DNA of 43,171 bases, from positions 1-43,171 of the IMG/VR virus record IMGVR_UViG_2939121850_000002. One strand, written 5' to 3'. Numbering within the stretch: position 1 is the first letter of the stretch; every line of letters starts with the position of its first letter. The notes beneath the pieces were generated by a model. The model was not told where the DNA came from, made no database searches, and saw nothing but the letters and a program-made list of their open reading frames with translations. The DNA comes from a virus. Its lineage: Duplodnaviria > Heunggongvirae > Uroviricota > Caudoviricetes. Below, piece by piece: positions 1 to 43,171 of the stretch. A program made the translations under genes and the position numbers.

Positions 1-870
1 TTGCTTGACAGCTTCACCGAAAAAATGGCGCGAAATTTTCATTTCGAATATGGAACAGCGCGCGCCTGGGGATCTTTTGGCTATGCTATTGGCGCGTTCT
101 TTGCCGGCATATTTTTTAGTATCAGTCCCCATATCAACTTCTGGTTGGTCTCGCTATTTGGCGCTGTATTTATGATGATCAACATGTGTTTTAAAGATAA
201 GGATCACCAGTGCGTAGCGGCGGATGCGGGAGGGGTAAAAAAAGAGGATTTTATCGCAGTTTTCAAGGATCGAAACTTCTGGGTTTTCGTCATATTTATT
301 GTGGGGACGTGGTCTTTCTATAACATTTTTGATCAACAACTTTTTCCTGTCTTTTATGCAGGTTTATTCGAATCACACGATGTAGGAACGCGCCTGTATG
401 GTTATCTCAACTCATTCCAGGTGGTACTCGAAGCGCTATGCATGGCGATTATTCCTTTCTTTGTGAATCGGGTAGGGCCAAAAAATGCATTACTTATCGG
501 TGTTGTGATTATGGCGTTGCGTATCCTTTCCTGCGCGCTGTTCGTTAACCCCTGGATTATTTCATTAGTGAAGCTGTTACATGCTATTGAGGTTCCACTT
601 TGTGTCATATCCGTCTTCAAATACAGCGTGGCAAATTTTGATAAGCGCCTGTCGTCGACGATCTTTCTGATTGGTTTTCAAATTGCCAGTTCGCTTGGGA
701 TTGTGCTGCTTTCAACGCCGACTGGGATACTCTTTGACCACGCAGGCTACCAGACAGTTTTCTTCGCAATTTCGGGTATTGTCTGCCTGATGTTGCTATT
801 TGGCATTTTCTTCTTGAGTAAAAAACGCGAGCAAATAGTTATGGAAACGCCTGTACCTTCAGCAATATAG
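1..870 (+). CDS. cscB: LacY-family oligosaccharide:H+ symporter, C-terminal 289 aa (sucrose permease CscB-like); 5' end lies outside the window
   Basis: Translation aligns along its length with LacY-type motifs (EKMARNFHFEYGTARAWG, YNIFDQQLFPVFY, GPKNALLIGVVIMALRI, KLLHAIEVPLCVISVFKY). The csc locus is known to sit next to argW in some E. coli. First codon TTG is a window-edge artefact. Confidence 0.6.
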   Translation: MLDSFTEKMARNFHFEYGTARAWGSFGYAIGAFFAGIFFSISPHINFWLVSLFGAVFMMINMCFKDKDHQCVAADAGGVKKEDFIAVFKDRNFWVFVIFIVGTWSFYNIFDQQLFPVFYAGLFESHDVGTRLYGYLNSFQVVLEALCMAIIPFFVNRVGPKNALLIGVVIMALRILSCALFVNPWIISLVKLLHAIEVPLCVISVFKYSVANFDKRLSSTIFLIGFQIASSLGIVLLSTPTGILFDHAGYQTVFFAISGIVCLMLLFGIFFLSKKREQIVMETPVPSAI

Positions 871-1399: not shown

Positions 1400-1600
1400 T
1401 TACCCATTGGCGCGGCTTAAGAGCTTATTTTTGAATTCACAATGGTCACGATATAACCATCTTGCTCGCCCGTGGATAACTTTGGCTTTTGGAAGGTCTC
1501 CGGACTTAATCCGAGCATAGATGAAGGTTTTACCGAAGCCAGTATCGGCCATGATGAATTTCAAATCAACCAGTGAATCAGGCTGTAGTTCGTGTTGCAT
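1400..1600 (-). CDS. torI: TorI-like excisionase / recombination directionality factor (AlpA-type winged helix), 66 aa
   Basis: 66-aa protein with FIMADTGFGKTFIYARIKSGDLPKAKVIHGRARWL, matching my recollection of KplE1/CPS-53 TorI. Sits at the prophage end opposite the integrase, as in KplE1. Confidence 0.7.
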   Translation of the reverse strand: MQHELQPDSLVDLKFIMADTGFGKTFIYARIKSGDLPKAKVIHGRARWLYRDHCEFKNKLLSRANG

Positions 1601-1973: not shown

Positions 1974-1993
1974 AAAAAACCGCCATCAGGCGG
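1974..1993 (-). terminator. Rho-independent terminator at the end of the early-left operon
   Basis: On the minus strand: GGCGG-tgat-CCGCC hairpin followed by T6 (plus-strand aaaaaa-ccgcc-atca-ggcgg). Confidence 0.45.
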
Positions 1994-2168
1994 CTTGGTG
2001 TTCTTTCAGTTCTTCAATTCGAATATTGGTTACGTCTGCATGTGCTATCTGCGCCCACAGCATCCAGTGGTCATAGCAGTCGCTGATGTTCTCGGCTTCG
2101 ATAACTCTGTTGAATGGCTCTCCATTCCATTCACCTGTGACTCGGAAGTGCATTTGTGATTTCTCCAA
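1986..2168 (-). CDS. Hypothetical small phage protein (60 aa)
   Basis: Last ORF of the minus-strand early operon, ends at the terminator; no recognisable motif. Confidence 0.35.
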   Translation of the reverse strand: MEKSQMHFRVTGEWNGEPFNRVIEAENISDCYDHWMLWAQIAHADVTNIRIEELKEHQAA

Positions 2169-2500: not shown

Positions 2501-2674
2501 AAAACAAAACCCGCCGTAGCGAGTTCAGATAAAAGAAATCCCCGTCAGTGCGAGGATTGTTAGTTGCGCTCTGCTGCTGCCTTAGCCATTACCATATCCA
2601 CCAAACTTCACCAGACATGATTCTCGCAATCACTATCATCACCAAAGTGATAATCACAACTTTAACTGGCGGCA

Positions 2675-3292
2675 TCATTCACCATCCTGCTCCGGCGGTT
2701 CAGGAATCGCCATCCATCTGATTACATCGCAATTACGTAGGCTGATGTCATCTCCAAGCCATCCTTGACCTTCAGACCAGCATTGCACGTAATACCCGTC
2801 TGCGGCGTCAACTACGCACCACTGCGCGTCGTTCGGCATTCGCTCACTACAGCTTATCCAACCATCCGGAGTTACCGGATAGTTGCCGGGTTCTTTAATG
2901 TGCAAGCGAGGCTCACCATCTTTTGGCTCAGGCCACTGGCGCTCCATGTTGATCTTCAATTTATCTTCCATAGCAGCGGTAATTTCAGCATCGCTGATGC
3001 CAGCACGGCGCTGTGCATCCCACAACAGAAACTGCATATCAGCCCACTCGCTAAGATCGTCTGGTTCGGCTGCGGCTTCCAGTGCCTCTTTTGAGAGATG
3101 TTTCAGCGGACCAATGGGGCCAACGCAGCCAAATGTGGAGTCAGACCATTTGGCATGCTCGTGGCGAATCTGTTCGCGTTCCAGTGATGCCAGTGCAATT
3201 CGTGCCAGTTCCATTTGTTCGCCACGAGTAAGTCCGTTATCAAGCGGATTTTTAATGAATAATTTGATACGTTCTTTGGTTATAGCGCTCAT
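2675..3292 (-). CDS. DUF551-domain early-left protein
   Basis: C-terminal PDGWISCSERMP...WCVV...RWMAIPEPP resembles the DUF551 signature common in enterobacterial prophages. Likely start is the Met at 3292, overlapping the upstream stop (ORF-track start 3334). Confidence 0.5.
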   Translation of the reverse strand: MSAITKERIKLFIKNPLDNGLTRGEQMELARIALASLEREQIRHEHAKWSDSTFGCVGPIGPLKHLSKEALEAAAEPDDLSEWADMQFLLWDAQRRAGISDAEITAAMEDKLKINMERQWPEPKDGEPRLHIKEPGNYPVTPDGWISCSERMPNDAQWCVVDAADGYYVQCWSEGQGWLGDDISLRNCDVIRWMAIPEPPEQDGE

Positions 3293-3939: not shown

Positions 3940-4496
3940 GAATGCACTCCCTTGTGAAGCTGTTCCGCACAATGCAGCAGGGCGTCAGTCGCCTCTTTCA
4001 CCGTAACGCAGTCGCCATCGTCCAGCCCGGACACCGACGCGTGCTTAACGAACGCCGCGCAAAGGTCATCAAACGCCTTAGCCCGGACTTCAGCCAGGAA
4101 AGCATCGGTGGCTGGGGTGTCTGATTGCATAGACTTTGCGCGATAATCATTCCACCCTCTTGCATATATGGGATTAACTTGCACCCCATCTTTTACGCAA
4201 TATGCCTGCCCTCCACGGTTGATAACCTTGATTTCGTCCATAGCGCCAGACTTCAGCCCCGCATTCTCCGCCGCCAGCGCCGAAAACTTCTCGTGTGCCA
4301 ACTTAACAGCCGCATCAGCCTGCTTAATTGACTCAATCGCTTTCTGGTGGTCTTCGGACAGAGCCGAAATCTTGGCCTCCGCTTCAGCAAATTTACGCAC
4401 CAGATATTCACCGTTTGTTTCGTTAACCTTTAAATCTCGTGGGATGCATTGACCTTTCAGAAAACCATCCATCTCAATTAGTGACATTTGTTTCAT
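3936..4496 (-). CDS. Hypothetical early-left protein (186 aa, coiled-coil N-terminus)
   Basis: Unambiguous ORF, translationally coupled to the Lar-like gene; no motif recognised. Confidence 0.45.
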
Positions 4497-4653
4497 TTCT
4501 TCCCACTCCGCAACATCGCATTCAGATATTTGTTTTGATTCACTGATGGAAAAGAATTTCTCTTAAGCAATTCCTCTCTCGATGGCATTGGCTTTACGCG
4601 TTGGAGAATAATCATTTCTGCCGGAAGAATGCCGGGATTGTATGCAAGTCCTC

Positions 4654-4944
4654 TCATGATTTACTCTCCACGAACTGGTCAATAGCCATGCTAAGTGACA
4701 CACCTAAAGTCTCGATATGTTGCTGAATATCCTGTAGCGTCTGCGCCTGAGATAACAGGATTTCACGGTTGCATAATTCTTTAACCAGATGCTCAAACTT
4801 GCTGTAATAACCGATACGGCTTAGTGTTTCTTTCCCTGCATTCTCGCCTTCTTTTATAATTCCTCTTTCGCTAAGAATCAGATCGTGTTTGGTTCCGGTA
4901 ATAACGTATTTTCCGAGGTCGATGTTTAGCTTCATTGTTTTCAT
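4654..4944 (-). CDS. Hypothetical early-left protein (~96 aa)
   Basis: ORF in the operon; the internal Met at 4944 avoids overlap with the upstream gene. Confidence 0.4.
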
Positions 4945-6940: not shown

Positions 6941-7027
6941 AATTCACCTCAGAATGGACATGGCCCAAGGAAATAACGCTGATTTAATACTTCAGTCTTT
7001 GCCGCATTTAAAAATACGCGAACACCT

Positions 7028-7198
7028 TCACGATCTCCCTTCTGGCGATACATTAACGCCTGCTGCGTGTACATGCGTCTCTGTAACTTGCTCTCCTTCA
7101 CTGTGGTTGCAAGTGACATGCATATCTCCTTCGTTACCGATTAAATCTTTCATCTGACGAATGAATTCTTCGTCTGACCAGTTATCTGTAAAACTCAT
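7028..7198 (-). CDS. Small hypothetical protein at the kil position (57 aa)
   Basis: ATG at 7198 overlaps the cIII stop (ATGA); synteny only. Confidence 0.3.
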   Translation of the reverse strand: MSFTDNWSDEEFIRQMKDLIGNEGDMHVTCNHSEGEQVTETHVHAAGVNVSPEGRS

Positions 7199-7365
7199 GG
7201 ACGGCCTTGTTGTTTCAAAATATCCCAAAGCTTTTCGAGCAAACTTTTCATTCTTGGTTGTTTAAAGTCTGCTCCGGTTAAAATATTTTTTCGTGAATGC
7301 TGTACCGATAAAATCGGGTTGAAAGGGCGAACCGATGCCGCCCCTGCAATAGCGAACTGTTGCAT
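7195..7365 (-). CDS. cIII: CIII-like protein (56 aa), not in the ORF track because it is under 60 aa
   Basis: Hand translation: MQQFAIAGAASVRPFNPILSVQHSRKNILTGADFKQPRMKSLLEKLWDILKQQGRP. The MQ.AIAG N-terminus and central amphipathic helix resemble lambda CIII; AAGGAG RBS 6 nt upstream. Confidence 0.5.
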   Translation of the reverse strand: MQQFAIAGAASVRPFNPILSVQHSRKNILTGADFKQPRMKSLLEKLWDILKQQGRP

Positions 7366-7440
7366 AGGATGCTCCTTCTGTTTGATTGCATAACGAAAAC
7401 GCCTCGAGTGAAGCGTTATTGGTATGCGGTAAAGCCGCGC

Positions 7441-7752
7441 TTAGGCGGCTGATGTTTCTTCTTTCAGGCTTTCGAGATATTTACGTGGGTCGTCGTAACA
7501 TTGGCATTCGCTGTACCAATCCACCCAGCGATCAGTAAGCCCCATCTCTGATAAATCTTCATCGGTAAGGCTCTCATCCCACATCTCAAGGCCGTTAGCA
7601 TTGCAGTAATCAGGCTTGATGTTGTTGTCATACTGAAAGGCGTCATAATCAGCCAGTGCGTCCATCAGGCGAACACCCTCTTCAACACTTGCCACTTCTA
7701 CAATGAACGGCTTCATAGGTACTTGCGGGATATGCCAGACACGTAATTTCAT
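7441..7752 (-). CDS. Hypothetical acidic early-left protein (104 aa)
   Basis: Start at 7752 is preceded by GGAGGA; no family recognised. Confidence 0.45.
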   Translation of the reverse strand: MKLRVWHIPQVPMKPFIVEVASVEEGVRLMDALADYDAFQYDNNIKPDYCNANGLEMWDESLTDEDLSEMGLTDRWVDWYSECQCYDDPRKYLESLKEETSAA

Positions 7753-10504: not shown

Positions 10505-10612
10505 TAACACCGCTCTTTAACAGTCATGGTCCTCATTCCCGCCGAAATGCGGGAATACAACGCGCATAAGTTGATGCGCATAACTTCTTATTTGTTAAGG
10601 AAATACTTACAT

Positions 10613-10891
10613 ATGGAACTTACAAGTACTCGCAAGAAAGCGAATGCAATTACAAGCAACATCCTGAATCGAATTGCTGTACGTGGTCAGCGAAAGGTTG
10701 CTGATGCATTAGGGATCAATGAATCGCAAATTTCGCGATGGAAAGACAGCTTTATCCCAAAGATGGCCATGCTTCTGGCTGTGCTGGAGTGGGGTGTTGA
10801 AGACGAGGAATTAGCGGAGCTGGCAAAGAAAGTAGCCATGGTGCTGACAAAAGAAAAGCCTCAAGACTGCTGCAACAGTTTTGAGGCCTGA
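10613..10891 (+). CDS. cII: CII transcriptional activator
   Basis: [26 protein letters not shown] matches the lambda CII core; real start is the internal Met (MELTST...). Confidence 0.85.
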
Positions 10892-10925: not shown

Positions 10926-11072
10926 ATGACAAAACAACTCAGTCCTTACCAGGACAAAATTCACAAACACATACTACGTGATCGCTTCCTGTCCAGCTTC
11001 AAGCAGCCTGGTCGATTCCGGGCTGAGTTGGAAAAAGTGAAGCTGATGCAGAAGGAGAAAGGTCATGAGTAA
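10926..11072 (+). CDS. Small hypothetical protein between cII and O (48 aa)
   Basis: GGAG RBS before the ATG at 10926. Confidence 0.3.
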
Positions 11073-11925: not shown

Positions 11926-12032
11926 ACCATGAAATCAAAAATCAAATCGTTACTGGTCGCTGGTTATAACCACGGCTGGTTAAGTATTTCGTTTGTCGAT
12001 TTCTGGTTTAAAAATCTCAATCTGAGGGAATC

Positions 12033-13913
12033 ATGAGGCCAAGTGAACTTAGCGACCTGCTTTGGGCGCAGGTTGACAGGGTGGCTCCGCACCTGTTGCC
12101 AAACGGCAAGAAAGAGGGGCATGAGTGGGTTGCCGGTAACGTCAACGGTGACAAGGGAAACAGCCTTAAGGTCAACCTTAGCGGCAAGAAAAAATGGGCT
12201 GATTTCGCTGAGGGAGACGGCGGTGACATGCTTGATTTGTGGATGGCATGTCGTGGAATTAACCTGCATCAGGCTATGCAGGAAGCGAAAGCATTTCTCG
12301 GTATCAAGGATGACGATCACCATTTCGATGCCAAACGTGAGAAGAAATTCTCCAGACCTGATCGCAAGAAAATCGCCCGCTACGTTACCAGAACAGAATC
12401 CCATCTTGAGTACCTGCAATCGCGTGGCATATCGCCAGAAATCGTAAAGCGCTACGAGGTTGTCAGCGGCAAGGTGTGGAATGGAGAACGAGAACTTGAT
12501 GCACTGGTGCTTCCGTACAAACGCGATGGTGAGTTGTTGCAGGTCAAGCGAATCAGCACTGAGCGCCCGGACGGGAAGAAAGTCATTATGGCAGAAGGTG
12601 ATTGCGAACCTTGTCTGTTCGGATGGCAGGCTCTGGACGCTGGCGTGAGGGCGGTTGTACTTTGCGAAGGCGAAATTGATTGTATGAGCTATGCGCAATA
12701 CGGCATCTCGGCGTTATCCGTGCCGTTTGGTGGCGGGAAAGGCGCTAAGCAACAGTGGATTGAGTTTGAGTATCACAACCTCGACAGGTTTGAGGAAATA
12801 TTCATCTCGATGGACGTTGATGATGTTGGTCGTGAAGCCGCAAGGGAAATCGCAAGCCGACTCGGTGAACATCGTTGCCGTCTTGTTACTCTGCCGTACA
12901 AAGACATCAACGAATGCCTGATGAACGGTGTTACCGAGGATGAAATCTGGCAGTACATCGGCACGGCATCCTACTTCGATCCTGAAGAACTCTACAGCGC
13001 GCGAGAGTTTTACCAGGACACTATCAACGCTTTCTACGGCAAGCAGCAGTATCTGTTTAATCCACCGTGGGAATCTCTCGCAGATAAATTCCAGTTCCGT
13101 GAGGCCGAGTTGACGCTGGTCAATGGTGTGAACGGTCACGGAAAAACGGAGGTTGTCGGGCATATGGCACTTGAGGCAATGCGTCAGGGTGTGAAGACGT
13201 GCATCGCGTCACTTGAGCTGAAGCCAGGCATTCTCCTTAAGCGACTTACCCGTCAGGCAACGTGCTGCAAGATGCCGCCAGTGCTGGAAATTGACTCTGC
13301 ATTTAAATTTTATGACGAAAGACTTTGGGTGTTTGGCCTGACCGGAACGGCGAAAGCCGACAGGCTGATCGAAATATTCGACTACGCTCGCCGCCGATAC
13401 GGCATCCAGTTATTCATCATCGACAGCCTGATGAAATGTGGCATAGGCGACGATGACTATAACGGGCAGAAGGCGTTTGTTGACTCGATTTGCGACTTCA
13501 AAAACAAAACAAACTCCCACGTCATTCTCGTTACTCACTCGCGAAAAGGAGACAGCGAAGAAAAACCAACCGGGAAAATGGACGTAAAAGGCTCTGGAGC
13601 GATAACAGACCTGACAGACAACCTTTTCATCATCTGGCGTAACAAGGCTCGCGAGAGAGCGTTACAGAGAGTTCAGAGTGGTGAAAAGATGTCAGAGAAG
13701 GACGAACAGCTACTGGCATCTCCGGCATCTGTTTTGATGCTTGAAAAACAACGTAACGGTGAAGGTTGGGAAGGTGGTGTCCCGTTGTTCCTTGACGAGC
13801 AATCGCACCAGTTCCTGCAACTTGAATCAGGATCGCCATATAGCTACATCGCCAATATGCCGAAATCGGAATATGACGAGGCGTGGCGACAGGAAAACGT
13901 GACAGAGTATTAA
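12033..13913 (+). CDS. Bifunctional DNA primase/helicase (Toprim domain plus RecA-fold helicase)
   Basis: Toprim motif VVLCEGEIDCMSY; Walker A GVNGHGKT; Walker B FIIDSLMK; occupies the lambda P / P22 gene 12 position. Confidence 0.8.
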   Translation: MRPSELSDLLWAQVDRVAPHLLPNGKKEGHEWVAGNVNGDKGNSLKVNLSGKKKWADFAEGDGGDMLDLWMACRGINLHQAMQEAKAFLGIKDDDHHFDAKREKKFSRPDRKKIARYVTRTESHLEYLQSRGISPEIVKRYEVVSGKVWNGERELDALVLPYKRDGELLQVKRISTERPDGKKVIMAEGDCEPCLFGWQALDAGVRAVVLCEGEIDCMSYAQYGISALSVPFGGGKGAKQQWIEFEYHNLDRFEEIFISMDVDDVGREAAREIASRLGEHRCRLVTLPYKDINECLMNGVTEDEIWQYIGTASYFDPEELYSAREFYQDTINAFYGKQQYLFNPPWESLADKFQFREAELTLVNGVNGHGKTEVVGHMALEAMRQGVKTCIASLELKPGILLKRLTRQATCCKMPPVLEIDSAFKFYDERLWVFGLTGTAKADRLIEIFDYARRRYGIQLFIIDSLMKCGIGDDDYNGQKAFVDSICDFKNKTNSHVILVTHSRKGDSEEKPTGKMDVKGSGAITDLTDNLFIIWRNKARERALQRVQSGEKMSEKDEQLLASPASVLMLEKQRNGEGWEGGVPLFLDEQSHQFLQLESGSPYSYIANMPKSEYDEAWRQENVTEY

Positions 13914-13990
13914 ATGACCATCTACATCACTGAGCTAATAACAGGCCTGCTGGTAATCGCAGGCCTTTTTATTTGGGGGAGAGGGAAGTC

Positions 13991-14431
13991 ATGAAAAAAC
14001 TAACCTTTGAAATTCGATCTCCAGCACATCAGCAAAACGCTATTCACGCGGTACAGCAAATTCTTCCAGACCCAACCAAACCAATCGTAGTAACCATTCA
14101 GGAACGCAACCGCAGCTTAGACCAAAACAGGAAGCTATGGGCCTGCTTAGGTGACGTCTCTCGTCAGGTTGAATGGCATGGTCGCTGGCTGGATGCAGAA
14201 AGCTGGAAGTGTGTGTTTACCGCAGCATTAAAGCAGCAGGATGTTGTTCCTAACCTTGCCGGGAATGGCTTTGTGGTAATAGGCCAGTCAACCAGCAGGA
14301 TGCGTGTAGGCGAATTTGCGGAGCTATTAGAGCTTATACAGGCATTCGGTACAGAGCGTGGCGTTAAGTGGTCAGACGAAGCGAGACTGGCTCTGGAGTG
14401 GAAAGCGAGATGGGGAGATCGGGCTGCATGA
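13991..14431 (+). CDS. ninB: NinB recombination protein
   Basis: MKKLTFEIRSPAHQQNAIHAV... near-identical to lambda NinB as I recall it. Confidence 0.85.
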   Translation: MKKLTFEIRSPAHQQNAIHAVQQILPDPTKPIVVTIQERNRSLDQNRKLWACLGDVSRQVEWHGRWLDAESWKCVFTAALKQQDVVPNLAGNGFVVIGQSTSRMRVGEFAELLELIQAFGTERGVKWSDEARLALEWKARWGDRAA

Positions 14432-14955
14432 CTATCAAATCAAATACGCCAGCACACGACAAGGACTGCTGGCAAACGCCGCTTTGGCTTTTTGATGCAC
14501 TGGATATTGAGTTTGGATTCTGGCTGGATTCGGCAGCGAGCGACAAAAATGCTCTGTGTGCTCACTGGCTAACTGAGGCCGACGACGCGCTCAATTCTGA
14601 GTGGGTAAGCCACGGTGCAATCTGGAATAACCCACCGTACAGCAATATCAGGCCGTGGGTGGAAAAAGCCGCTGAGCAGTGCATACAACAGCGACAGACG
14701 GTAGTTATGCTTGTGCCAGAGGATATGTCAGTCGGATGGTTCAGCAAGGCTCTGGAGAGTGTCGACGAAGTTCGCATTATCACTGATGGACGGATTAATT
14801 TTATCGAACCATCGACAGGGTTGGAGAAGAAGGGAAACAGCAAAGGCTCCATGCTGCTGATTTGGCGACCGTTCATCAGTCCTCGACGGATGTTTACTAC
14901 CGTATCCAAAGCGGCATTGATGGCGATCGGGCAGGGTGTCAGGAGGGCGGCATGA
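14428..14955 (+). CDS. Phage DNA N6-adenine methyltransferase (Dam-type)
   Basis: NPPY catalytic motif (WNNPPYS); ATGA overlap with ninB; sits in the ninC position. Confidence 0.8.
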
Positions 14956-15128
14956 GGCGACAGCGACGAAGTATCACCGACATAATCTGCGAAAACTGCA
15001 AATACCTTCCAACGAAACGCTCCAGAAATAAACGCAAGCCAATCCCAAAAGAATCTGACGTAAAAACCTTCAACTACACGGCTCACCTGTGGGATATCCG
15101 GTGGCTAAGACATCGTGCGAGGAAATGA
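14952..15128 (+). CDS. ninE: NinE
   Basis: [27 protein letters not shown]... matches lambda NinE as recalled; ATGA coupling to dam. Confidence 0.6.
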
Positions 15129-15490
15129 CAATGGATTATTCACAGTTAAGTGATTTTGAAATTAACAAGCGAGTGGCAATTTGCTGTGGATTTACTCCCG
15201 AAGATTGCGAAATCGCAAAGTTGGGAACATCAATCGTTGGTGTTGAGTGGGATGACGAAACTGGTTATGCAATAAAAACGGTTGATTACTGTAAAAGCCC
15301 ATCAGACGCAGAGCCGATTATCGTAGAGAACAGAATTGGCATTATTCCAGCGCCAGAAAATGGATTATGGAAGGCAGCGCATAGAAAAGTTGGCAGTGAT
15401 AGTACCCCATATCATATGACTCAAGATGAAAACCCACTCCGCGCCGCCATGATTGTCTTTCTCATGATGCAGGACGCCAATAATGCTTAG
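15125..15490 (+). CDS. nin-region hypothetical protein (NinX/DUF2591-like)
   Basis: 121-aa ORF translationally coupled to ninE; family assignment is tentative. Confidence 0.4.
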
Positions 15491-15659
15491 CCCATCCCAA
15501 TCCCTTCAATACCAGAAAGAAAGCGTCGAGCGAGCTTTAACGTGCGCTAACTGCGGTCAGAAGCTGCATGTGCTGGAAGTTCACGTGTGTGATCACTGTT
15601 GCGCAGAACTGATGAGCGATCCGAATAGCTCAATGTACGAGGAAGAAGACGATGGCTAA
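15483..15659 (+). CDS. ninF: NinF (58 aa; under the ORF-track cutoff)
   Basis: Hand translation [58 protein letters not shown], zinc-ribbon-like, matching lambda NinF as recalled. Confidence 0.55.
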
Positions 15660-16263
15660 ACCAGCACGAAGACGATGTAAAAACGGTGAATGTCGGGAAT
15701 GGTTTCACCCTGCATTCGCTAATCAGTGGTGGTGCTCTCCAGAGTGTGGAACAAAGATAGCACTCGAACGACGAAGTAAAGAACGCGAAAAAGCGGAAAA
15801 AGCAGCAGAGAAGAAACTACGACGAGAGGAGCAGAAACAGAAAGATAAACTGAAGATTCGAAAACTCGCCTTAAAGCCCCGCAGTTACTGGATTAAACAA
15901 GCCCAACAAGCCGTAAACGCCTTCATCAGAGAAAGAGACCGCGACTTACCATGTATCTCGTGCGGAACGCTCACGTCTGCTCAGTGGGATGCCGGACATT
16001 ACCGGACAACTGCTGCGGCACCTCAACTCCGATTTGATGAACGCAATATTCACAAGCAATGCGTGGTGTGCAACCAGCACAAAAGCGGAAATCTCGTTCC
16101 GTATCGCGTCGAACTGATTAACCGCATCGGGCAGGAAGCAGTAGACGAAATCGAATCAAACCATAGCCGCCATCGCTGGACTATCGAAGAGTGCAAGGCG
16201 ATCAAGGCAGAGTACCAACGGAAACTCAAAGACCTGCGAAATAGCAGAAGTGAGGCCGCATGA
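15652..16263 (+). CDS. ninG: NinG (Rap) recombination-associated protein
   Basis: Cys-rich N-terminus and basic region collinear with lambda NinG. Confidence 0.8.
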
Positions 16264-19004: not shown

Positions 19005-19438
19005 GCAAAGTAACCGCGATTATCTCCGCTCTGGTTATCTGCATCATCGTTTGCCTGTCATGGGCTGTTAATCATTACCGTGATAACGCCATGACCTACA
19101 AAGAGCAGCGCGATAAAGCCACATCCATCATCGCTGATATGCAGAAGCGTCAACGTGATGTAGCAGAACTCGACGCCAGATACACAAAGGAGCTTGCTGA
19201 TGCTAACGCGACTATCGAAAGTCTCCGTGCTGATGTTTCTGCTGGTCGTAAGCGCCTGCAAGTCGCCGCCACCTGTGCAAAGTCAACGACCGGAGCCAGC
19301 AGCATGGGCGATGGAGAAAGCCCAAGACTTACAGCAGATGCTGAACTCAATTATTACCGTCTCAGAAGTGGAATCGACAGGATAACCGCGCAGGTTAACT
19401 ACCTGCAGGAATACATCAGGACGCAATGCCTTCGATGA
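19001..19438 (+). CDS. Rz: Rz i-spanin
   Basis: N-terminal TM segment ([18 protein letters not shown]) and coiled coil; collinear with lambda Rz. Confidence 0.85.
19200..19385 (+). CDS. Rz1: Rz1 o-spanin lipoprotein, embedded in the +1 frame of Rz
   Basis: Signal peptide with lipobox (LLVVSAC) followed by a Pro-rich segment; entirely inside Rz in another frame. Confidence 0.75.
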
Positions 19439-19612
19439 TAGCGATAATTTTACTCATCATCCTTCACATCTGGCTCTGTAGACAGGGTGGTGATCACTTC
19501 TGGAGTAAATCCAGATTAAACATCTCATTGCTGATGCTTGATATTGAGCATCTGGCGCGCGGTAAGGGGCTGCGTTGAGATAAGAGCCAGTCATCACAAA
19601 CACCAGGATTTA

Positions 19613-36952: not shown

Positions 36953-37126
36953 ATGATAGTCAAGTCAGACGCACCAAAGTACCCTTTGCGCATCCCATTA
37001 GAGGTTAAGTTAGCAATCGAGAAGTCAGCGAAAGAAAATGGTCGCTCAATAAATACCGAGATGGTAATGCGGTTGGTGGATAGTTTAAGGCGGGATAGTT
37101 CTAAAGGTAATCTAGCAAAAAGTTGA
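36953..37126 (+). CDS. arc: Arc-like ribbon-helix-helix repressor
   Basis: 57 aa with PLRIPLEVKLAIEKSAKENGRSINTEMVMRLVDSL, similar to P22 Arc. Confidence 0.7.
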   Translation: MIVKSDAPKYPLRIPLEVKLAIEKSAKENGRSINTEMVMRLVDSLRRDSSKGNLAKS

Positions 37127-37205
37127 AGCCCCAACTGCGGTAACAGTCAGGGCTTCGGTTGTCGGTAAATCCGTGGAGAAAAACCAACATGAATAGTATA
37201 GCAAT
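37112..37205 (-). ncRNA. Candidate sar-like antisense RNA across the arc-ant junction
   Basis: Minus-strand intrinsic terminator (7-bp stem GAAGCCC/GGGCTTC, then TTTTT on the minus strand) in the arc-ant intergenic region, where P22 sar RNA terminates. 5' end and promoter not determined. Confidence 0.3.
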
Positions 37206-40769: not shown

Positions 40770-41963
40770 TTAATCAACCTTCCCATCAAGCCAGTCCGCC
40801 CACCACTGCATCATTTCTCTGCGCTTATCGAGATACTGAGCATGGTTGTAAATTCCACGCACAGAACCGCCGTTGGCATGTGCTAGTTGCACTTCAATGG
40901 CGTCGGCAGGCCATTCGTGCTCGTTCATAATCGTGCTGAATTCATGCCTGAATCCGTGACCGCTTTCCAGACCTTCATAGCCGATTTGTTTGATCACAAG
41001 CAGTACCGCGTTCTCGCAGATTGGCTTCTTCTTATCGTTGCGCCCGGCAAAAACAAACTCTGAGACTGGTTTGGTTATTGAGCTTAGCGTAGTGAGAAGT
41101 TCAACCACCTGGTCTGACATCGGGACCACATGAATTTTGCGTCCCTTCATCACACTGGCGTCGATGGTGATAATCCTGTTTTCAAAATCGACGTTCTTCC
41201 ATAGCATGGAACGAAGCTCTTTCGTTCTTAGGGCTGTGTAGCGTAAAACTTTGGTCGCAATGAGCGATACGATACTTCCTGAAAATGTTGCCAGTGCTTT
41301 GTTGAATGCAGGGATCTGGTCTGCTGGAAGAAACGGGAAGTTCTTCTTGCGGTATCCTTTCATGGCGTCTGCAAGGTCAGGTGCCGGGTTATATTTAGCC
41401 CTTCCGGTGACAATAGCGTAACGAAAAACCTCGCCGCATCTTCTGCGGGCTTTGTTGGCTCGCTCCATTGCACCGCGATCTTCAAATCTGCGGATTACTT
41501 CCAGCAGTTGCATCGGCTCAATATCCTGAATCTCAAGACCGCCGATGATGGGTAAAATGTCGTCATCAAACATTTTGGCAAGTTCAGTTGCATAGCCTAC
41601 TGACCAGACTTGCTTCTTGTGCTCGTACCATTCCTTGTAAATCGCACTAAATGAATTGTTGTTAGACGAAGCCTTTTTCGCCTTTACCGGATCTATGCCA
41701 ACCGAGATGTCTTTCCTCGCAGTCCATGCCTTATCCCTTGCTTCCTGCAAAGTCATAAGCGGATATTTTCCGACAGTCAGGATTTTCTCCTTACCGTCAA
41801 TCTTGTAGCGAAGCTGCCATACCTTTTTCCCTGATACAGGGACATAAAGGTACAGGCCATTACCATCGAGAAGGCGGTATGGTTTTTCTTTCGGCTTTGC
41901 TGCTTCAATCTGCTTAACGGTGAGCATGGGTAAAAATCCGGTGGGTAAAATTATTTTATCCAC
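40770..41963 (-). CDS. intS: P4-type tyrosine integrase (IntS-like)
   Basis: N-terminus (LTVKQIEAAKPKEKPYRLLDGNGLYLYVPVSGKKVWQLRY) is typical of P4-family integrases; transcribed away from argW. Internal Met at 41927 may be the true start. Confidence 0.85.
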   Translation of the reverse strand: MDKIILPTGFLPMLTVKQIEAAKPKEKPYRLLDGNGLYLYVPVSGKKVWQLRYKIDGKEKILTVGKYPLMTLQEARDKAWTARKDISVGIDPVKAKKASSNNNSFSAIYKEWYEHKKQVWSVGYATELAKMFDDDILPIIGGLEIQDIEPMQLLEVIRRFEDRGAMERANKARRRCGEVFRYAIVTGRAKYNPAPDLADAMKGYRKKNFPFLPADQIPAFNKALATFSGSIVSLIATKVLRYTALRTKELRSMLWKNVDFENRIITIDASVMKGRKIHVVPMSDQVVELLTTLSSITKPVSEFVFAGRNDKKKPICENAVLLVIKQIGYEGLESGHGFRHEFSTIMNEHEWPADAIEVQLAHANGGSVRGIYNHAQYLDKRREMMQWWADWLDGKVD

Positions 41964-42088: not shown

Positions 42089-42103
42089 TGGCGTCCCCTG
42101 CAG
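42089..42103. repeat. Prophage attachment core, right copy, forming the 3' end of argW
   Basis: tggcgtcccctgcag; partner of 1312-1326. Confidence 0.6.
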
Positions 42104-42163
42104 GAATCGAACCTGCAATTAGCCCTTAGGAGGGGCTCGTTATATCCATTTAACTAAGAGGAC
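42089..42163 (-). tRNA. argW: tRNA-Arg (anticodon CCU)
   Basis: 75-nt cloverleaf on the minus strand: acceptor GTCCTCT/AGGGGAC, anticodon loop CTCCTAA, T-arm GCAGG-TTCGATT-CCTGC, encoded CCA end. Confidence 0.9.
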
Positions 42164-42238: not shown

Positions 42239-43171
42239 TTATGCCGGGTTTTTATCATTTTTCTTAATGTTTTCCGCACGTTCTGCTTTTTGGCGTGCTT
42301 CTGCTTTACGCTTGTTGCTCATGTCGTTACGAATCTGTGCATGACTCATTAACGCGAAGATAAAGGTGCCGCCGCAGATGTTCCCCGCTAAAGTAGGTAG
42401 TGCGAAGGGCCAGATGAAATCGCTCCAGTGCAGCGTACCGTTAAACACCAGATAGAGGATTTCAACAGAACCGACCACGATATGGGTGGTGTCACCCAGG
42501 GCAATAAGCCAGGTCATCAATATAATCACCACAATCTTTGCCGCACCTGCTGCAGGAAACATCCATACCATAGTGGCGATCAGCCAGCCGGAAATGATCG
42601 CGTTGGCAAACATCTCGCTGGGGGTGTTCTTCATCACATCCATGCCGATTTTGACAAATGCATCGCGAGTTTCTTCATTGAAGATAGGCATATATTCAAA
42701 TGCCCATGCAGCAATACCTGTCCCGAGAATATTACCCAGCAGCACGACGCCCCATAATCGCATAAGTAAGCCGACGTTGCTCATTGTCGGTTTTTGCATG
42801 ACGGGTAGTACCGCAGTCACGGTGTTTTCGGTAAATAATTGCTGGCGGGCCATAATGACGATAATAAAACCAAAGGTATAACCGAGATTCTCCAGTAAGA
42901 AGCTGCCCGGCACACCTTCCAGTTCGACATGAAATATCCCTTTTGCCAGTAACGAAGCGCCCATCGACAGACCCGCCGCAATGGCTGACCACAGTAGCGC
43001 CATTGCGTCGCGTTCCAGCTCTTTTTCACCATCCTGGCGGATATGCTCATGAATTGCCATCGCCCGGGAGGGGAGTCGGTCTTCATCTATTTCTATTTTT
43101 TTGCCGCGCTCTTTTTCTTCGCTCTCAACTTCAATTTCGTCGCTGTGTTGATCAATTTTGTCGTTGTCCAT
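42239..43171 (-). CDS. yfdC: Formate/nitrite-transporter-family inner membrane protein (YfdC-like)
   Basis: 310-aa polytopic membrane protein; position next to argW as in E. coli K-12. Start codon sits at the window edge. Confidence 0.6.
   Translation of the reverse strand: MDNDKIDQHSDEIEVESEEKERGKKIEIDEDRLPSRAMAIHEHIRQDGEKELERDAMALLWSAIAAGLSMGASLLAKGIFHVELEGVPGSFLLENLGYTFGFIIVIMARQQLFTENTVTAVLPVMQKPTMSNVGLLMRLWGVVLLGNILGTGIAAWAFEYMPIFNEETRDAFVKIGMDVMKNTPSEMFANAIISGWLIATMVWMFPAAGAAKIVVIILMTWLIALGDTTHIVVGSVEILYLVFNGTLHWSDFIWPFALPTLAGNICGGTFIFALMSHAQIRNDMSNKRKAEARQKAERAENIKKNDKNPA

Follow-up and report, generated by a model that had tools for sequence, protein, structure and literature searches.

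A divergent CIII-like gene, ninF and an ES18 gp60-type gene among the short genes of a P22-like prophage

Known classes of CIII and related short genes

Two classes of the CIII peptide have been described, that of phage lambda and that of HK022 (Kobiler et al. 2007, PMC1838920). In lambda CIII, residues 14-37, which form an amphipathic helix, were reported to be both essential and sufficient for activity (PMC1838920). The lambda cIII gene is dispensable for plaque formation and, in the same way, lambda ninF is not needed for it (PMC10695390). Phages of the HK542, HK140 and mEpX1 type carry another common allele annotated as 'cIII', and one literature search found no paper on this class. Of modest interest here is that this allele is not a standard CIII, since the stretch essential in lambda is missing from it, and that its role in the choice between lysis and lysogeny is an assumption.

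The prophage and its three short open reading frames

The window, that is the whole stretch of 43,171 nucleotides analysed here, has a GC content of 47% and contains a P22-like, lambdoid prophage localized between host genes. It is flanked by a LacY-type permease gene of the host (positions 1-870) and by a host gene for a formate/nitrite transporter (42239-43171), and the integrase gene of the prophage adjoins a tRNA-Arg gene. The prophage carries N, CI, Cro and lambda-type CII genes, a nin region and virion genes of the P22 type. The lambda-type CII gene (10526-10891) scores 149.7 bits with Pfam Phage_CII, and an O-like replication gene is followed by a primase/helicase gene.

An initial annotation had pointed to three open reading frames (ORFs) of this prophage, a cIII of 56 aa at 7195-7365, a ninF of 58 aa at 15483-15659 and a 35-aa ORF at 11929-12036 that might also be real, and these coordinates and sizes were found to be exact. 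The three had been missed because of a 60-aa display cut-off alone. The reading preferred here, with a probability of roughly 0.75, is that they are genuine, translationally coupled short lambdoid genes that encode a putative CIII-like inhibitor of FtsH, NinF and a protein of the gp60 family known from ES18. All three ORFs are conserved prophage genes known from public phage genomes. Since their sequences are already in public databases, the finding is an ordinary one.

Short ORFs expected by chance

When the minimum length was lowered to 30 aa, as the initial annotation had advised together with a scoring of ribosome-binding sites (RBSs), the six frames of the window yielded 54 ORFs of 50-59 aa, 85 of 40-49 aa and 148 of 30-39 aa, or 287 ORFs of 30-59 aa in total. 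An ORF of such a size in this window is by itself no more than chance. As chance ORFs of 30-59 aa are so common, the case for the three genes rests on their RBSs, on overlaps with neighbouring genes and on frame-specific conservation. A Shine-Dalgarno match precedes the CIII-like ORF, ninF and the 35-aa ORF alike; start/stop overlaps with neighbours are present for all three, and all three are kept in the correct frame among diverged relatives. Homologues were found for each of them, and some public phage records, at least, carry an annotation of each of the three genes.

The abundance of ORFs of 30-59 aa (287 in the window) could suggest that one or more of the three is a chance frame, in DNA that is conserved for non-coding reasons or on account of neighbouring genes. 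However, the substitution patterns are frame-specific, the ORFs are intact in other genera at 42-50% protein identity, ninF scores above the threshold of a curated Pfam family, and the RBSs are accompanied by coupled start/stop overlaps. A chance origin is extremely improbable in the light of these observations and can be regarded as effectively refuted already.

The CIII-like ORF is a genuine gene

The CIII-like gene spans 7195-7365, stop included, and encodes 56 aa from an ATG start (MQQFAIAGAASVRPFNPILSVQHSRKNILTGADFKQPRMKSLLEKLWDILKQQGRP). The initial annotation had given no strand for this ORF; it lies on the minus strand. The RBS AAGGAG is placed 6 nt ahead of the ATG at 7365, and the TGA stop overlaps the ATG of a downstream ORF, named ORF A here, in the sequence ATGA (7195-7198).

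An identical protein was found in 32 phage records, with HK542, HK140, mEpX1, SPN9CC and vB_EcoP-720R6 among them, under labels that vary between 'putative cIII protein', 'CIII anti-termination' and 'hypothetical protein'. It is also present at no fewer than 80 loci of IMG/VR. Because the protein is 100% identical throughout these 80 loci, diverged contigs were chosen for the selection test. Ten pairs, involving diverged copies with 84%, 82%, 74% and 61% identity, gave pN/pS values of 0.13-0.69, and the comparison of the window with one related contig (L104) gave a pS of 0.77 and a pN of 0.10. As a control of the frame, the window was compared with BIS08P22, for which the two other sense frames of the ORF gave ratios over 1.6; the score of the antisense frame whose third codon positions coincide with those of the coding frame was, as one would expect, close to the coding-frame score.

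More distant relatives were found in several genera. Homologues of 57 aa with 42-48% identity are present in Hafnia, Erwinia and Yersinia phages, where a pair of small coupled ORFs and, behind it, an Erf-type recombinase come next. Overall, the homologues measure 53-63 aa, share 38-60% identity and conserve the motifs of the family. A search of 1.84 billion proteins with the family profile (hmmsearch) listed 35 matches; the 20 weaker ones were inspected, and all of these carry the core motif of the CIII-like family itself, [FN]-[DN]-[PA]-I-x-S-I-[QE]-[HF]-x-x-x-N-I-L-T-[GS]-x-[DS]-F, and none that of lambda. At the C-terminus, the family has the motif K-S-[LW]-L-x-[KR]-L-[VW]-[ED]-x-L-x-Q-x-G-x-P. 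The family is widespread among phages of the Enterobacterales (Escherichia, Salmonella, Enterobacter, Atlantibacter, Buttiauxella, Hafnia, Erwinia and Yersinia). The CIII-like ORF is a genuine gene.

Position and leader are those of lambda cIII

The slot that the CIII-like gene occupies belongs to the pL (early-left) operon: N and gene 17 precede it, and the recombination module follows directly. In the four diverged contexts the same order was observed every time, with an N_peptide gene upstream and a Rad52, RecT, ERF or DUF3799 gene downstream, and a Phage_CII gene was nearby in all four, as it is in the window. The Hafnia, Erwinia and Yersinia phages have this gene order too. The gene thus lies, as lambda cIII does, between N and the kil/recombination genes and behind a leader that bears a terminator.

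This leader (7366-7450, minus strand) comprises two hairpins, one at 7433-7450 and a terminator-like one at 7398-7417, followed by the RBS AAGGAG at 7372-7377, 6 nt before the ATG. The fold of the leader has a z-score of -3.0. Just upstream of cIII, the DNA identity to lambda is 80.7% over 109 nt (window 7342-7449), and both hairpins as well as the RBS AAGGAGCA and the ATGCAA after it are near-identical in the alignment with the lambda leader. The two systems have in common the pL-operon slot, a homologous leader with its RBS and a lambda-type CII alongside.

The slot was also compared with that of H-19B. On both flanks of the cassette, H-19B and the window are 97.7-98.4% identical, and the exchanged segment (window 7199-7371) is the ORF itself, the mosaic junctions being localized just outside the ORF ends. 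In H-19B the same slot is filled by an HK022-type cIII and kil, whereas the cassette of the window is without kil. Since the H-19B slot holds both cIII and kil, the cassettes are not exchanged one for one. The CIII class of HK022 and H-19B is an alternative allele in the same slot, and the two proteins are unrelated at the BLAST level, tblastn with the HK022/H-19B CIII giving no match below E=1. No second, canonical cIII was detected by tblastn when lambda, P22 and HK022 CIII were searched against the window and 87 related loci.

A probable, divergent relative of lambda CIII

Sensitive comparisons relate the protein remotely to CIII. PHROG 550 ('CIII') matches it with E=1e-22, and hhalign against canonical CIII profiles gave probabilities of 95.4% and 95.7% (E about 1e-8). 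With lambda CIII, BLASTP found marginal similarity only (28% identity, E=0.025). Pfam PF02061 yielded no match at E<=1, short of its gathering threshold, and the NCBIfam CIII model, from which PGAP takes its naming, yielded none at E<=10. Weak PF02061 matches were obtained for three of the 29 members of the family alignment (best E=0.0032), an alignment that mixes matches from two different searches. In PGAP, the identical protein (WP_001183771.1) goes by 'hypothetical protein', and a sequence search of the PDB with the CIII-like protein returned nothing.

The similarity to lambda CIII is concentrated at both ends of the protein. At the N-terminus, the glycine motif M-x-x-A-I-A-G...G is present, as MQQFAIAG in the window and MQYAIAG in lambda, and G8 is invariant across the 29-member family alignment. 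At the C-terminus, KSLLEKLWDILKQQGRP of the window corresponds to RDGWKRLIDILNQPGVP of lambda; both proteins have L-x-D-I-L-x-Q-x-G-x-P there and a basic residue, K45 in the window protein, at the position of lambda R32. The window protein is slightly longer, with 56 aa versus 52-54 aa for lambda CIII.

The centre of the protein is different. The invariant ESLLERITRKLR of canonical CIII is swapped for ILSVQHSRKNILTGADFKQPR in the window protein, with about 10 extra residues. E16, L18, L19, R21, I22 and T23, which are invariant in 26 canonical CIII proteins, are absent from it, and the profile alignment covers only the second half, lambda 25-43 being aligned with window 38-56. Nor does the window protein have a conserved central region that forms one amphipathic helix. 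AlphaFold models, of moderate confidence for both proteins (mean pLDDT 65-67), place a single helix at 18-38 in canonical CIII and helices at 17-26, 31-34 and 37-53 in the window protein. The best segment of the latter reaches an amphipathic moment (muH) of 0.67 versus 0.90 for lambda, a value that does not go beyond shuffled sequences, 171 of 2000 of which matched it.

Taken on its sequence, the CIII-like protein would be a divergent, insert-bearing relative of lambda CIII. It is not a standard member, because the stretch that is essential in lambda is missing. The label cIII that had been given to this ORF therefore holds in part: the gene is real, it has the slot and the leader of lambda cIII, and PHROG 550 and hhalign (95-96%) connect it with CIII, but the Pfam and NCBIfam models do not match, PGAP calls it a hypothetical protein and the canonical invariants are lost. 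What speaks for the name 'cIII' is position and remote homology only.

In parallel, a resemblance between FNPILSVQHSRK of the CIII-like protein and VNRPILSLNRK of lambda N, prompted by an N::CIII-like chimera (P0016), was considered. BLASTP gave it no support and it was put down to chance.

Proposed function of the CIII-like peptide

The most likely role of the peptide would be that of CIII, namely the inhibition of FtsH. According to the model of CIII action (PMC1838920), the CIII-like peptide would bind the host protease FtsH both as a competitive inhibitor and as a substrate. Inhibition of FtsH would then transiently stabilise the lambda-type CII of the prophage (10526-10891) and favour lysogeny. 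In structural terms, the single lambda helix 18-38 would be replaced by the predicted helices 17-26 and 37-53, arranged around a conserved insert, NILTGADFKQP. The only parts that appear to be retained from lambda CIII are MQxAIAG and the C-terminal half of the helix, KSLLE[KR]LWDILKQxGxP as compared with RDGWKRLIDILNQPGVP, with K or R at the R32 position.

Alternatively, the 56-aa ORF may be a real pL-operon gene whose product is no inhibitor of FtsH. The core of the peptide, [FN]-[DN]-P-I-x-S-I-Q-H-x-x-x-N-I-L-T-G-A-D-F, would then act on another host target, no more of CIII having been kept than its outer parts at the N- and C-terminus, and a Kil-like or other host-takeover function is one possible form. 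The essential canonical core is indeed gone and a different, strongly conserved one stands in its place. In addition, the curated CIII models find no match, the amphipathic moment is not significant, and the cassette stands where H-19B has cIII and kil, with no recognisable kil at the spot. Against this, the profile-profile homology to CIII reaches 95-96%, the slot and the leader are as for lambda cIII, CII is always present alongside and canonical CIII never is, and the equivalent of lambda R32 (K/R) has been kept together with the second half of the helix. A role apart from FtsH is rather unlikely on this evidence, and FtsH inhibition is the preferred reading.

On the reading preferred here, these proteins would form a third, insert-bearing class related to CIII, beside those of lambda and HK022. 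A tentative extension, less likely than not, is that they are lysogeny peptides of a class of their own whose core, P-I-x-S-I-Q-H-x-x-x-N-I-L-T-G-A-D-F, stands in place of the essential region of lambda CIII, and which therefore might engage FtsH in another way or have another host target.

Two overlapping ORFs beside the CIII-like gene

ORF A (7028-7198, minus strand, 56 aa) is coupled to the CIII-like gene through the ATGA overlap and matches PHROG 2123 with E=3e-39; PGAP does not call it. The N-terminus of ORF A, MSFTDNWSDEEFIRQM, is conserved and has an Arf-like motif, and its tail is unconstrained. In related loci, this N-terminus is joined to four different tails, of 35, 52, 56 and 60 aa. 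ORF A and Arf of P22 have the SDEEFI motif in common (WSDEEFI/FSDEEFI).

ORF B (6949-7119, minus strand, 56 aa) starts within ORF A behind an RBS of its own, AAGGAG, and has 92 nt in common with it; 8 nt separate the end of ORF B from the gene of a Rad52-like recombinase. It corresponds to PHROG 1723 (E=4.5e-34) and to the PGAP protein WP_000050554.1. In the overlap of the two ORFs, pN/pS is 0.22 in frame B, as under purifying selection, and 2.2 in frame A; over the whole of ORF B it is 0.29. ORF B was also considered as a homologue of Kil and rejected as such at the sequence level, BLASTP giving no alignment to Kil of HK022 or H-19B and Pfam and NCBIfam no Kil match.

ninF

The ORF at 15483-15659 (plus strand, 58 aa) matches Pfam NinF (PF05810) with 46.2 bits, above the cut-off of 27.5 (E=3.9e-12), and PHROG 672 with E=2e-37. 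The RBS AGGA lies 8 nt ahead of 15483, and ninF overlaps both ninX and ninG by 8 nt. The gene is directly before ninG (15652-16263; Pfam NinG, 303 bits), an order also observed in lambda and in HK106.

Window and lambda NinF are 87% identical, with the same CxxC...CxxCC pattern and the same overlapping place before ninG. The N-terminus of the window protein is two residues longer. A further difference is found upstream, since ninF of the window is preceded by ninX, as in P22, whereas in lambda it directly follows ninE. The annotators of HK106 as well as PGAP have given the NinF label. The product of 15483-15659 is orthologous to NinF of lambda, a small protein rich in Cys, and the Pfam score and the identity to lambda fully bear out the name that the initial annotation had chosen.

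A 35-aa relative of ES18 gp60

The 35-aa ORF (11929-12036, plus strand) is localized between the O-like gene and the primase/helicase gene. The RBS AGGTGA lies 3 nt ahead of 11929, and the stop overlaps the ATG of the primase gene in the sequence ATGA. The profile of PHROG 21848 covers it practically over its full length (residues 1-34 of 35, E=4.4e-26).

The closest relatives are gp60 of ES18, with 97% identity, and gp51 of epsilon34, with 71% identity, both of the same length and in the same position. Genes of the gp60 family are annotated in ES18, epsilon34, vB_EcoP-720R6 and SaltyDalty, and the coupled arrangement of O-like gene, 35-codon ORF and primase/helicase gene was observed in these four and in Fraca. 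Five gp60 alleles, with identities between 50% and 97% and a nucleotide identity as low as about 50%, all consist of exactly 35 codons and have in common the motif MK..[IL]K.LL[VI]AGYN[HR]G.L...FV....F...[ND]LR. They start at or just after the O stop (3 nt after it, or overlapping it), and their stops meet the start of the primase/helicase gene or fall within 3 nt of it. The pN/pS of gp60 is 0.30-0.61. For most diverged pairs this ranks lowest or close to lowest among the six frames, over only 105 nt, and points weakly to purifying selection on the peptide. No family in Pfam or NCBIfam corresponds to the ORF, and it is missing from the PGAP annotation of E. coli CM2.

These features could also be those of a mere translational bridge, which couples the O-like gene to the primase/helicase gene and whose peptide is itself without function. 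Such a bridge would fit the start at or near the O stop and the stop at the primase start across relatives, the weak purifying selection (pN/pS 0.3-0.6) and the lack of a Pfam or NCBIfam family and of a PGAP call. Nevertheless, the ORF has exactly 35 codons even where nucleotide identity drops to about 50%, four diverged alleles retain the motif LL[VI]AGYN[HR]G...FV....F...[ND]LR, and the pN/pS of the coding frame ranks at or near the bottom of the six in most pairs. A functionless peptide is the less likely reading on these grounds, though a serious rival. The ORF, which had been put forward as possibly real, is a conserved gene, classed with the family of ES18 gp60 (PHROG 21848). Translation would pass in a coupled chain from the O-like gene to gp60 and on to the primase/helicase gene. 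A role of gp60 in the initiation of replication, which its position brings to mind, is only a guess.

Further genes below 60 aa

In this one prophage, about a dozen real genes or more escape notice when ORFs are cut off at 60 aa, among them NinE/NinF, an Arc-like repressor and a putative CIII-like lysogeny regulator. With a limit of 30 aa, 287 ORFs are added, only about 5% of which are supported. Short phage genes should therefore be called by conservation, coupling and position and not by length.

The initial annotation had expected more genes of this size. Its direction was right, and its list was incomplete: NinE, DUF2737, DUF2740, the Arc-like repressor, ORF A and ORF B all belong here. 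These and other short genes were picked with the lowered cut-off by their RBS, their position in gaps and the support of a family. The ninE gene (14952-15128, plus strand, 58 aa) scores 148 bits with Pfam NinE, is named 'NinE family protein' by PGAP and encodes a protein 93% identical to lambda NinE. A DUF2740 gene of 48 aa (10926-11072, plus strand; 99.4 bits with Pfam DUF2740), also called by PGAP, lies between cII and O. In the early-left operon, a DUF2737 gene of 54 aa (4493-4657, minus strand) has 105.9 bits with Pfam DUF2737 and belongs to PHROG 1117. The gene of the Arc-like repressor, 57 aa (36953-37126, plus strand; Pfam Arc, 47.2 bits), is found in an immI-like region and adjoins a sar RNA recognised by Rfam (37121-37188). 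Finally, an embedded Rz1 is located at 19200-19385, and three ORFs, at 1986-2153, 13914-13994 and 19426-19578, have matches in PHROG only.

Exchange of the CIII-like gene and its first codons

Compared with phage H-19B (L001, AF034975), the CIII-like gene lies in an exchanged cassette that spans positions 7199-7371 of the window and 914-1187 of H-19B, and whose boundary falls just beyond both ends of the 56-aa ORF (7195-7365, minus strand). In H-19B, an HK022-type cIII and kil occupy the slot that holds the CIII-like ORF in the window. Because this slot contains kil in addition to cIII in H-19B, phages carrying the 56-aa allele are without a recognisable kil at this position.

At the start of the CIII-like gene (7363-7345, minus strand), a small hairpin (UGCAA...UUGCA) that takes in two AUG bases can be formed, a pairing that lambda and the Yersinia phage homologue also allow. 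The translation of lambda cIII is controlled by alternative mRNA structures, to which this start-codon hairpin may be related.

Among the database relatives of the CIII-like protein, P0016 is a chimera in which residues 1-27 of lambda N continue into CIII-like residues 10-56, and it presumably arose by deletion in a defective prophage. Two other relatives, P0003 and P0021, are 91-aa versions extended at the N-terminus by reading through the hairpin leader where a genome lacks gene 17, and appear to be artefacts of gene calling. A resemblance of the lambda N stretch VNRPILSLNRK to FNPILSVQHSRK was also considered and was rejected, as BLASTP gave no support for it.

Overlapping ORFs beside the CIII-like gene

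ORF A and ORF B, each of 56 aa, are located together at 6949-7198 on the minus strand and share 92 nt, which each reads in a different frame; ORF B (6949-7119, minus strand) is called by PGAP. Within the overlap, purifying selection was observed on the ORF B frame and none on the tail of ORF A. The N-terminal 16-25 aa of ORF A are conserved, resemble the start of P22 Arf and are joined in related phages to tails of 35, 52, 56 or 60 aa. Copies of both ORFs, 98.4% identical, are also present in H-19B, where they are unannotated.

Other short genes

Five short genes with curated Pfam support were all absent from the initial annotation, namely those encoding NinE (58 aa, 14952-15128), DUF2740 (48 aa, 10926-11072), DUF2737 (54 aa, 4493-4657), an Arc-like repressor (57 aa, 36953-37126) and Rz1, an embedded lipoprotein of 61 aa (19200-19385). 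Four further small candidate ORFs, each with an RBS, were identified in intergenic gaps, their family support being confined to PHROG. A 26-aa hydrophobic peptide encoded directly 3' of the primase/helicase stop (13914-13994, plus strand) matched PHROG 5907 (E=1.6e-19), a 50-aa ORF 3' of the spanin genes (19426-19578, plus strand) matched PHROG 11822 and a 55-aa ORF (1986-2153, minus strand) matched PHROG 676. The fourth, a 29-aa hydrophobic ORF (2589-2678, minus strand), had no family match.

Prophage ends and immI region

An excisionase-like gene (1400-1600, minus strand) is found at one prophage end, and the integrase, with Arm-DNA-bind_3 and Phage_int_M domains (40770-41963, minus strand), at the opposite end, where it adjoins a complete tRNA-Arg(CCT) (42089-42163, minus strand). 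Once the phage genome is circular, this arrangement would place attP between xis and int, whereas in lambda and P22 it comes after int. Finally, a sar RNA (37121-37188, minus strand; Rfam, 96.3 bits) is located between the Arc-like and ant-like genes, which is a mark of a P22-type immI region.
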